Of a DNA stretch of 46,941 bases, positions 30,539-31,341 are shown in pieces. Source of the DNA: Escherichia phage ECO111 5-P. The position numbers were made by a program, and so were the translations under genes. The stretch's first letter is position 1; each line of letters starts with the position of its first letter. The stretch is taken from sequence record OR844768; one strand, 5' to 3'. Below the pieces are notes generated by a model. That model saw only the letters and a program-made list of their open reading frames with translations. It had not been told where the DNA came from and made no database searches.

Positions 30539-30799
30539 CAAAGAAAGTAGCGGCTTAGCGTAAAGCTTTACTCCTCCTCCCTGACCGATAATGATTACAT
30601 TCTCTGCACCTTCAATTAAAATTAAACCTTGCTTTGGTTTTTTGAATAAAGGTCTAATGTGAATGCCGGACTTGGTATGAAAAACAATACATGTTTCAAT
30701 AAACGTTATTGAACCTAATTTATAATTATCCCCTTTTGGGATTTGCTTTTCAATTGTATCCGGTACAGGAGTGTTCTTTCTGAATAATTCAATTTTCAT
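30536..30799 (-). CDS. hypothetical protein
   Basis: Track ORF, ATGA-coupled to DnaN-like gene. Confidence 0.4.
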   Translation of the reverse strand: MKIELFRKNTPVPDTIEKQIPKGDNYKLGSITFIETCIVFHTKSGIHIRPLFKKPKQGLILIEGAENVIIIGQGGGVKLYAKPLLSL

Positions 30800-31341
30800 T
30801 AATCAATCCTCCTCGGCATAACAACAATCTTCGCATTCTCGCCTGATGGCGCACTAAGACAGCAAACTGCGGCATCTGTGCTCCCATTCAGTTCAAATTT
30901 AACGCCACAGAATTTAGGATTAAACAGCTTAGCCGCTTTCTCAATATCAACCAGATAGCCAGCATTGAATCCGATGCAATCAGCAGCTTTCGTTTCCTTT
31001 GGTATCACGCGATCAATATCAGGGAATCGACCATCAATCTCTTCGCAGATGCCAGCACCAACCATCGCGCCAGCTTCATCATGATACGTTGCAATTTTCG
31101 ACTTAGTATCAATGATGGCGTACTCATAGCGTTTTGTTGGTGACTTGCCAATCTTGATAATCACATTTTCTGTCAGCTTATTATCATGGCTGCCACCAAT
31201 GAATGCGCGATGACCGTCAGTTGACGCAATGCGACCATCAGGCATGAAGCAGATTCCATTCAGGTAGTAGCGCACATCTTTGTGAGCCTGAAAGATTAAT
31301 GCTGACTCAAGTAATAGTTTGCTGATTTTTAGTTTCATCAC
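30799..31341 (-). CDS. DnaN (DNA polymerase III beta sliding clamp)-like protein, miniaturised (180 aa)
   Basis: Motifs in DnaN order: STDGHRAF (DnaN TDGHRLA), GRFPDIDRVIPK (DnaN GRFPDYRRVLPK), IGFNAGYLVD (DnaN IGFNVSYVLD), C-terminal IVVMPRRI (DnaN YVVMPMRL). Confidence 0.5.
   Translation of the reverse strand: MMKLKISKLLLESALIFQAHKDVRYYLNGICFMPDGRIASTDGHRAFIGGSHDNKLTENVIIKIGKSPTKRYEYAIIDTKSKIATYHDEAGAMVGAGICEEIDGRFPDIDRVIPKETKAADCIGFNAGYLVDIEKAAKLFNPKFCGVKFELNGSTDAAVCCLSAPSGENAKIVVMPRRID

Follow-up and report, generated by a model that had tools for sequence, protein, structure and literature searches.

A short phage-encoded DnaN homologue that retains the protein-binding pocket of the beta clamp and lacks its ring-forming parts

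The sequence of Escherichia phage ECO111 5-P analysed here (record OR844768; the whole stretch of 46,941 nucleotides is referred to as the window) is essentially the complete genome of a Shuimuvirus-like siphophage. Its nearest relatives are phages HC6, IME207, C1, swi2 and Sf11, with 89–92% identity over 80–89% of a 5-kb query. Within an island of minus-strand genes it carries a gene for a homologue of DnaN, the bacterial beta clamp, of only 179 amino acids (aa), which we call the short clamp. The protein has kept the pocket through which the clamp binds its partners and has lost the parts that close the clamp into a ring, and it belongs to a very large family of phage proteins.

The gene was listed by the open reading frame (ORF) finder as 180 codons (30799..31341, minus strand), one codon longer than given here, with a GTG at 31341 as its first codon. 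Translation probably begins at the next codon, an ATG at 31338, and yields 179 aa, because all relatives begin with MKLK, because a Shine-Dalgarno-like sequence, AAGGTGA, sits 5 nt upstream, and because this ATG overlaps the TGA stop codon of an upstream 57-aa ORF. A preliminary description, made from the sequence alone, was right that the product is less than half as long as a beta clamp (366 aa), and its figure of 180 aa is likely to be one residue too high. The parts of the gene are as follows.

30799..31338, minus strand: the short clamp gene itself, encoding 179 aa between the ATG at 31338 and the stop codon at 30799..30801
31003..31338, minus strand: domain-II-like part, residues 2–113, equivalent to about 130–248 of E. 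coli DnaN, with two beta-alpha-beta-beta-beta repeats (phmmer, hhalign)
31255..31278, minus strand: DVRYYLNG loop, residues 22–29, equivalent to DnaN D150–G157, carrying pocket residues R152 and L155
31207..31221, minus strand: TDGHR, residues 41–45, equivalent to DnaN T172–R176, in pocket subsite I, with H175 bridging both subsites
30997..31035, minus strand: DGRFPDIDRVIPK, residues 103–115, equivalent to DnaN D238–K250, the interdomain connector, with pocket residues P242, R246 and V247
30802..30987, minus strand: single beta-alpha-beta-beta-beta repeat, residues 119–179, equivalent to the C-terminal half of DnaN domain III, 313–366 (hhalign)
30955..30975, minus strand: IGFNAGY, in the C-terminal repeat, with pocket residues N320 and Y323
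30808..30825, minus strand: VVMPRR, in the C-terminal repeat, with pocket residues V360–R365

Motifs of DnaN had been recognised in the preliminary description, and TDGHR, DGRFPDIDRVIPK, IGFNAGY and VVMPRR are indeed read from the sequence in the order then given. The possibility raised at the same time, that these are chance short matches, is ruled out by phmmer searches against PDB chains, which matched the clamp of Enterobacter cloacae at an E value of 1.1e-12 and that of E. coli at 1.1e-11, the ranking dropping with distance from the Enterobacteriaceae, and by a Foldseek search of an AlphaFold2 model, which matched only beta clamps in the PDB (probability 1.00; TM scores of 0.64–0.68 normalised to the query). 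This model was built on 100 diverse representatives of the family (pLDDT 96.8, pTM 0.91) and superseded a run on a shallow alignment of 28 sequences with 70–94% identity, for which the pLDDT was 54.6. The hidden Markov model comparison with DnaN domains II and III that had been proposed agrees with this, as hhalign placed the 100-member family profile on E. coli DnaN with a probability of 99.4% and an E value of 1.9e-21. Judged by sequence comparison and by the predicted fold, the 179-aa protein can be taken as confirmed to be a genuine DnaN homologue, with a similarity far beyond chance.

The short clamp nevertheless scores 27.8 bits with TIGR00663, for which the cut-off is 137.65, so that the curated DnaN threshold is not reached, and 15 bits, against a cut-off of 27, with the Pfam model for the central domain (DNA_pol3_beta_2). 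The match to phrog_3007 is strong (1.5e-62, with residues 2–179 on profile positions 1–186 of 190) while that to phrog_947, which represents full-length phage DnaN of about 368 aa, is weak (4e-10). The protein belongs to the clamp superfamily, and to a group of short phage proteins that had already been noticed, but by curated criteria it lies outside DnaN proper.

In the hhalign alignment residues 9–117 lie on DnaN 137–253, comprising domain II and the connector, and the alignment then jumps to 313–366. Relative to E. coli DnaN, domain I (about 135 residues) is wholly missing and so is the first beta-alpha-beta-beta-beta repeat of domain III, a loss of about 58 residues at a gap that opens just after DGRFPDIDRVIPK. 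The GRFPD...PK and IGFN motifs are consequently 7–9 residues apart here and 66–67 apart in E. coli DnaN. The size of this deletion had earlier been put at about 40 residues, which is too small; the accompanying view that a chain of this length is too short for a three-domain DnaN monomer agrees with the alignment. What is left are three repeats, or roughly a quarter of the ring. In the AlphaFold model the one inner helix per repeat is not kept throughout: long helices are seen only at residues 8–16 and 127–140, and the second repeat of domain II has none, its strands at 60–64 and 74–78 being linked by a 9-residue loop. One third of the expected inner helices is thereby lost.

The residues that line the clamp pocket have been listed (PMC11139829) as R152, L155, T172, G174, H175, R176, L177, P242, R246, V247, V360 and M362 for subsite I and H175, N320, Y323, V344, M362, P363, M364 and R365 for subsite II. 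The same 2024 review names, for the dimer interface, I78, R103 and F106 on one side and I272, L273, E298 and E304 on the other (PMC11139829). All 18 of the listed pocket residues fall inside the segments that the short clamp retains, and all seven of the named interface residues fall in the parts that it lacks, either domain I or DnaN 254–312. The loop through which the clamp-loader delta subunit is contacted outside the pocket presumably also lies in the deleted half of domain III. It has been described as five residues long (PMC11139829). In these lists pocket residues 152–177, in the N-terminal half of domain II, face 320–365, in the C-terminal half of domain III, and interface residues 272–304, in the N-terminal half of domain III, face 78–106, in the C-terminal half of domain I (PMC11139829). 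Because the halves of the pocket and of the interface face each other in this manner, the three retained repeats would, given the pseudo-symmetry of the clamp, be neighbours in the ring and make up an unbroken quarter-arc centred on the protein-binding cleft.

Conservation within the family follows the same pattern. In an alignment of 100 members the 17 pocket residues that were mapped show a mean conservation of 0.75, compared with 0.38 elsewhere (Mann-Whitney p = 2.5e-7), and the 25 best-conserved columns include 11 of the 17 (hypergeometric p = 2.9e-7). Conservation reaches 90% or more at M2, which is the start, and at D22, R24, Y26, L27, G29, G43, H44, P107, Y129, M175 and P176, which correspond to the RYYLNG loop, G174/H175, P242, Y323 and M362/P363 of DnaN. 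Pocket residues account for 8 of these 11 non-start positions (R24, L27, G43, H44, P107, Y129, M175 and P176), each of them at least 91% conserved. The individual values are 96% for D22, 97% for R24, 93% for Y26, 91% for L27 and 90% for G29 in the DVRYYLNG loop; 87% for T41, 99% for G43 and 93% for H44 in TDGHR; and 97% for P107, 93% for Y129, 96% for M175, 93% for P176 and 85% for R178.

Among 1.84 billion sequence representatives (50% clustering), 4025 were matched at E ≤1e-3 and 496 at ≤1e-10. Most of the best 150 are 170–210 aa in length and, apart from some truncated fragments, they match over their whole length; no full-length DnaN ranks better than an E value of 1e-15 in this search. 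With tblastn, 303 phage records were found, 293 of which carry full-length matches, and the hosts of these phages include Salmonella, Escherichia, Klebsiella, Vibrio, Acinetobacter, Burkholderia, Proteus, Pseudomonas and Pantoea. BFVD likewise contains many phage proteins of 178–210 aa with the same predicted fold (TM 0.8–0.88). The 100 aligned members have a median length of 186 aa, and the junction at the deletion measures 9 residues (5th–95th percentile 8–12), as against 67 in E. coli, with the same boundaries in the window protein; nearly all of them likewise have 9 residues at the site of helix 2 of domain II. Pfam recognises the central DnaN domain in 34 of these members, the N-terminal domain in one and the C-terminal domain in none. 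Values of dN/dS of 0.11–0.14, obtained in comparisons with two relatives, are those of a functional gene and place the family under purifying selection.

A further sample of 120 loci was retrieved from IMG/VR by scanning for a degenerate DNA pattern encoding DVRYYLNG, and it contained 63 clean short ORFs and 12 full-length ones. Two-domain intermediates were considered and rejected: the variants of 220–290 aa in this sample add C-terminal tails of 20–73 residues or loop insertions, and the missing half-domain is never restored. The tails follow the pocket-forming C-terminal MPxR strand (L055, 11912-12790; L073, 1991-2764; L056, 2377-3111; L121, 113-850) and could either fold back into the cleft or provide a second function. 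At three loci (L020, 5359-5927; L025, 207-775; L045, 2824-3392) the short clamp is broken into overlapping reading frames of 119 aa (profile positions 4–78) and 93 aa (99–178), which could represent a frameshifted copy or a sequencing error. At another (L117, 4571-5656) a 142-aa ORF that matches the N-terminal domain of DnaN (1e-25) lies directly upstream of a 215-aa clamp ORF, and the pair looks like a full-length phage DnaN, outside the short family, that has been interrupted by a frameshift.

The short clamps also differ from DnaN in charge. The isoelectric point (pI) of the window protein is 8.16 and the median for the 100 members is 8.4, compared with 5.25 for E. coli DnaN, with 25% of the members being acidic. 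Basic residues are kept at positions 20, 135, 138 and 143, on the concave side.

The surroundings of the gene include the following features.

31338..31511, minus strand: upstream 57-aa ORF, phrog_4439 (function unknown), whose TGA overlaps the ATG of the clamp gene
30536..30799, minus strand: downstream 87-aa ORF, whose ATG overlaps the TAA stop codon of the clamp gene (TAATG), with a weak DUF7618 match
30512..30532, strand not assigned: GC-rich hairpin followed by a T run, found as a terminator-like site in a scan, closing the minus-strand island between convergent genes
31624..32436, minus strand: ParB-like protein of 270 aa with HTH_ParB and KorB domains, in the same minus-strand island as the clamp gene
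6384..8717, minus strand: Prim-Pol/D5-type primase-helicase (PriCT) of the replication module
1836..3704, minus strand: SF2 helicase of the replication module

The overlap of TGA and ATG places the 57-aa ORF and the clamp gene in one operon and, together with the 87-aa ORF, they constitute one coupled unit that ends at the hairpin terminator. The phrog_4439 ORF adjoins the clamp gene in phage ST1UNAM as well; the 87-aa ORF is not kept beside it in either IME207 or ST1UNAM. The hairpin probably serves also as terminator for the plus-strand gene that ends at 30504. For the latter (29452..30504, 350 aa), the listed TTG start is probably too far upstream, because its match to phrog_5335 covers residues 164–349 only and because the IME207 counterpart has about 282 aa.

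The minus-strand island, running from 33114 to 30536, holds the clamp gene, the ParB-like protein and proteins of unknown function, with a C5-methylase in addition in some relatives, and it is set amid plus-strand structural genes, with capsid genes on one side and the downstream head genes and tail genes on the other. Accessory islands on the minus strand break this structural block at 20130..21518, 22958..24015, 30536..33114, 35562..35786, 37264..37458, 37574..37705 and 41354..42229. The last of these encodes an HNH-type endonuclease, and another HNH protein is encoded at 10714..11364 on the plus strand. A 275-aa ORF at 14807..15634 (minus strand) matches phrog_887, labelled 'queuine tRNA-ribosyltransferase' (6e-77). 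Its product is a TGT/DpdA-like enzyme, of a kind by which phages introduce 7-deazaguanine bases into their own DNA, and the DNA of the window phage may be modified.

Sak4-like, DUF669 SSB-like and Mu Gam-like proteins are encoded in the replication module as well. No DNA polymerase gene is present in the window, where every ORF of at least 300 aa was assigned another function, and none is annotated in the relative IME207; replication must therefore use the host polymerase. The replication and recombination module as a whole (1384..9118, minus strand) differs from that of IME207 (Erf, exonuclease VIII, separate primase, helicases) and appears to have been swapped between phages with structural genes that are otherwise about 90% identical.

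In other phages the gene has diverse neighbours. In Dhillonvirus 'rolling', SO-1, Kagunavirus and Burkholderia Naesvirus Bcep43 it stands alone on the opposite strand, inside the head gene block or next to it. In Serratia phage Eta it is flanked by a ParB-like gene and a helicase gene; it lies after helicase and nuclease genes in Pantoea phage Nafs113, before those for Dam methylase and SSB in a Vibrio phage, and near a LuxR-type regulator and a C5-methylase in others. At the IMG/VR loci it adjoins RecT, PolA, ArdA or SF2 helicase genes, with PolA at locus L023 and, as in Eta and Nafs113, a helicase at L043. The common setting is early DNA-metabolism and anti-restriction territory, with no single recurring partner.

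The ParB-like protein was considered as a general partner and rejected, being found nearby in only 1 of 26 IMG/VR clusters. Homologues of it occur near the short clamp in Serratia phage Eta and Pseudomonas phage Riah, the three proteins being 30–32% identical, and the neighbour in Dhillonvirus 'rolling', of 254 aa, has no relationship to ParB. Where the Eta and Riah homologues have the arginine-rich sequences GHRRHRA and GHRRRRA (L009, 3167-3988; L010, 2059-2904), the window protein has LDGQHRY, and it gives a weak DGQHR-domain match (E 0.007). A canonical clamp-binding motif near a terminus is absent from every ORF of the window, and terminal motifs are likewise absent from the neighbouring PolA, helicase and RecT proteins at other loci. 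The sole motif match within a real gene, QMHLSL, falls in the helix-turn-helix of the ParB-like protein, at a place where homologues have ordinary ParB helix residues, and was dismissed as a chance match.

Clamp-binding motifs (CBMs) of the QLxLF type are borne by the alpha and epsilon subunits of Pol III, by the clamp-loader subunit delta, and by Hda, Pol II, Pol IV, Pol V, MutS and MutL. With moderate confidence, we read the short clamp as a non-ring, pocket-only derivative of the beta clamp that would bind such host proteins, acting as a decoy or as an adaptor or tether. To bind the same short motifs as the host clamp would be the simplest function for a free pocket, and host proteins are the likelier ligands because no window protein carries a CBM at its terminus. 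During infection, the short clamp would then bind CBM-bearing host proteins off the ring. As a decoy it would sequester Pol III, delta, Hda, translesion polymerases or mismatch-repair proteins from the host clamp and, as an adaptor or tether, it would recruit a host polymerase to the helicase-primase or the DNA of the phage. The basic pI and the conserved basic residues lend the tether variant some support. A monomeric pocket could compete effectively, since the affinity of beta for delta is about 50-fold higher for the monomer than for the ring (PMC11139829).

Several points weigh against this reading. The conservation of the pocket shows, as far as sequence goes, that the cleft is kept under selection; it does not imply the identity of the ligand, the pocket being also the best-conserved part of true DnaN. 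The basic character of the family, with basic residues kept on the concave side, hints at contact with DNA over a purely soluble decoy. A decoy that trapped Pol III or delta would, moreover, work against a phage that itself needs the host replicase, unless timing or affinity were tuned. The remaining half of domain III exposes a surface that is normally covered by the missing repeat, which suggests self-association or a partner. Finally, the gene context is heterogeneous and, where the gene is a lone opposite-strand insert, as it is in four genera, uninformative on replication.

Of the alternatives, a non-ring processivity or tethering factor of the UL42/UL44 kind survives best, and even this we consider unlikely. 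The basic concave face would lie on DNA and the pocket would hold a polymerase on the template (Pol III or Pol I of the host, or PolA of the phage where it has one), with no need for a clamp loader. Such a role overlaps with the adaptor branch of the reading favoured above and differs from it in requiring direct DNA binding and stimulation of synthesis. The conserved pocket, the high pI of both the window protein and the family, the basic residues on the concave side, and the presence of PolA or helicase genes next to the short clamp are all consistent with it. Furthermore, in passages of a 2011 survey by Kazlauskas and Venclovas, viral clamp homologues without clamp loaders are described as having a raised positive potential, like the DNA-binding non-ring factors UL42 and UL44 (PMC3201878). 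A quarter-arc that has lost a third of its inner helices would, however, offer little surface for contacting DNA, the window phage has no polymerase of its own, and neither PolA nor the helicases encoded next to the gene carry a clamp-binding motif; pI is, besides, a crude proxy in a family with so many acidic members.

It is improbable that the protein is a scaffold with a cleft for a non-canonical peptide of some phage protein, such as a helicase, the ParB-like protein or a DNA-modifying enzyme, so as to organise a phage DNA-metabolism complex. The recurrence of the gene beside methylases and SF2 helicases, the homologous ParB-like neighbours in three phage lineages and the translational coupling to small ORFs in the window would fit with such a role. 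No general partner emerges, however, in view of the rarity of ParB-like genes among the IMG/VR clusters and of the several genera in which the gene stands alone, and a pocket nearly identical to that of the host clamp is most simply explained by ligands common to both.

An unconventional ring is more doubtful again, and we give it little credence. With three repeats per subunit the alternating within-domain and between-domain interfaces cannot be satisfied, so that a canonical head-to-tail ring would be topologically impossible, and the only geometrically consistent arrangement would be a D2-symmetric tetramer (4 x 3 = 12 repeats), with its subunits head to head and tail to tail and its pockets on both faces, encircling DNA. 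The sum of lengths fits (four chains of 179 aa add up to about two of 366 aa), the topology of the clamp would provide pseudo-twofold axes both within and between domains, the exposed half-domain and edge strand need partners, and herpesvirus UL44, which forms a head-to-head dimer, offers a precedent. Against these stand the absence of all known dimer-interface residues, the 4 of 12 inner helices that would be missing, the very confident prediction by AlphaFold of a self-contained monomer (pTM 0.91), and the presumed placement in the deleted part of the loop contacted by the host clamp loader. A basic pI, moreover, is typical of non-ring factors, according to the same passages of the survey (PMC3201878).

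A ring of unusual oligomeric state and a clamp mimic had been offered as equal possibilities in the preliminary description. Of these the mimic has gained and the ring has receded: sequence and model favour mimicry, because the retained residues are those of the CBM pocket and are the most conserved across the family, because every named dimer-interface residue sits in a deleted segment, and because a third of the inner helices is gone, the family is basic and the odd number of repeats would block head-to-tail closure.

A RusA-like Holliday junction resolvase, for which nothing speaks except the label attached to phrog_3007 in PHROGs and to many RefSeq records (e.g., NC_031924.1 gp47 and NC_005342.2 gp15), can be set aside with near certainty, since sequence, profile and fold all indicate DnaN, the window protein gives no RusA match in Pfam even at E values up to 10, and none of the 100 family members matches RusA while 34 match the central domain of DnaN. 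Nor was any relationship of the short clamp to defence systems detected with PADLOC.

Only tentatively would we extend the pocket-mimic reading to the family, such that hundreds of phages of Proteobacteria, together with structurally similar proteins in some phages of Gram-positive bacteria, would use a stand-alone pocket to capture host CBM proteins. Bacterial replication and repair have their central docking hub in the beta-clamp pocket, which is also an antibiotic target. If the reading is true, phages would take over the host by mimicking the docking site of this hub rather than its ligands, a previously unrecognised strategy, and this would account for how phages with non-DnaB helicases and no polymerase couple to, or disarm, the host replisome. 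Provided that the pocket mimicry holds, the 179-aa protein would also be a natural, soluble and minimal pocket kept by thousands of phage lineages and a compact scaffold for studying or screening pocket ligands, and the smallest portion of a clamp able to fold would be set at three repeats, a quarter of the ring. The results would permit correction of the widespread RusA-like mis-annotation in RefSeq phage genomes. If the protein is a DNA-binding tether instead, it would be the first counterpart in a bacterial virus of the herpesvirus non-ring processivity factors.

Among known systems, the closest is E. coli DnaN itself (PDB 2POL/1MMI; TIGR00663), with which the short clamp is homologous over 137–253 and 313–366, sharing the same fold and nearly identical pocket motifs (RYYLNG, TDGHR, GRFPDxxRV, IGFNxxY and VVMPxR). 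It differs in lacking domain I, the first half of domain III, one inner helix and the named dimer-interface residues, in having 179 rather than 366 aa, in being basic rather than acidic, and in scoring far below the curated cut-offs. The head-to-tail dimeric ring of DnaN would thus be beyond its reach. Full-length phage DnaN (phrog_947) is likewise borne by phages but has three domains, so that a ring is possible in principle, and it forms the minority in the IMG/VR sample (12 compared with 63 clean short ORFs).

The existence of the short family is already known. Short phage homologues of the Pol III beta subunit were noted in the 2011 survey (PMC3201878), and the window protein is a member of this group, represented by phrog_3007, by its full-length profile match and its length class. 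In GenBank, gp15 of Bcep43 is annotated as 'DNA Pol III b subunit fragment' and gp7 of Sodalis phage SO-1 as 'possible moron'. In the literature searched, the survey (PMC3201878) provides the sole mention of the family, and no functional, structural or mechanistic study was found. In the survey's passages on them, the short homologues are said to span 'the second and third domains', whereas only half of domain III is present here, and selective retention of the pocket is not mentioned in those passages (PMC3201878). Within the literature searched, including those passages, the half-domain, the quarter-arc centred on the pocket, the conserved pocket core without ring elements, and the very large size of the family did not turn up in earlier accounts.

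UL42 and UL44 have two full domains, hold their polymerase through a peptide-binding cleft, and have been demonstrated to bind DNA. The short clamp resembles them in combining a clamp fold without a closed ring with raised positive charge, both being features given for such factors in the passages cited (PMC3201878). There is, however, no detectable sequence relationship between them. The clamp pocket and its interaction with CBMs are exploited for the benefit of phages in other ways. Phage T4 gp45 acts in late transcription, and small phage peptides block the clamp pocket. Phage Mu MuC, in turn, carries a clamp-binding motif (PMC12867686). Factors of this type supply the ligand, or a whole phage clamp; the short clamp supplies a free-standing pocket.

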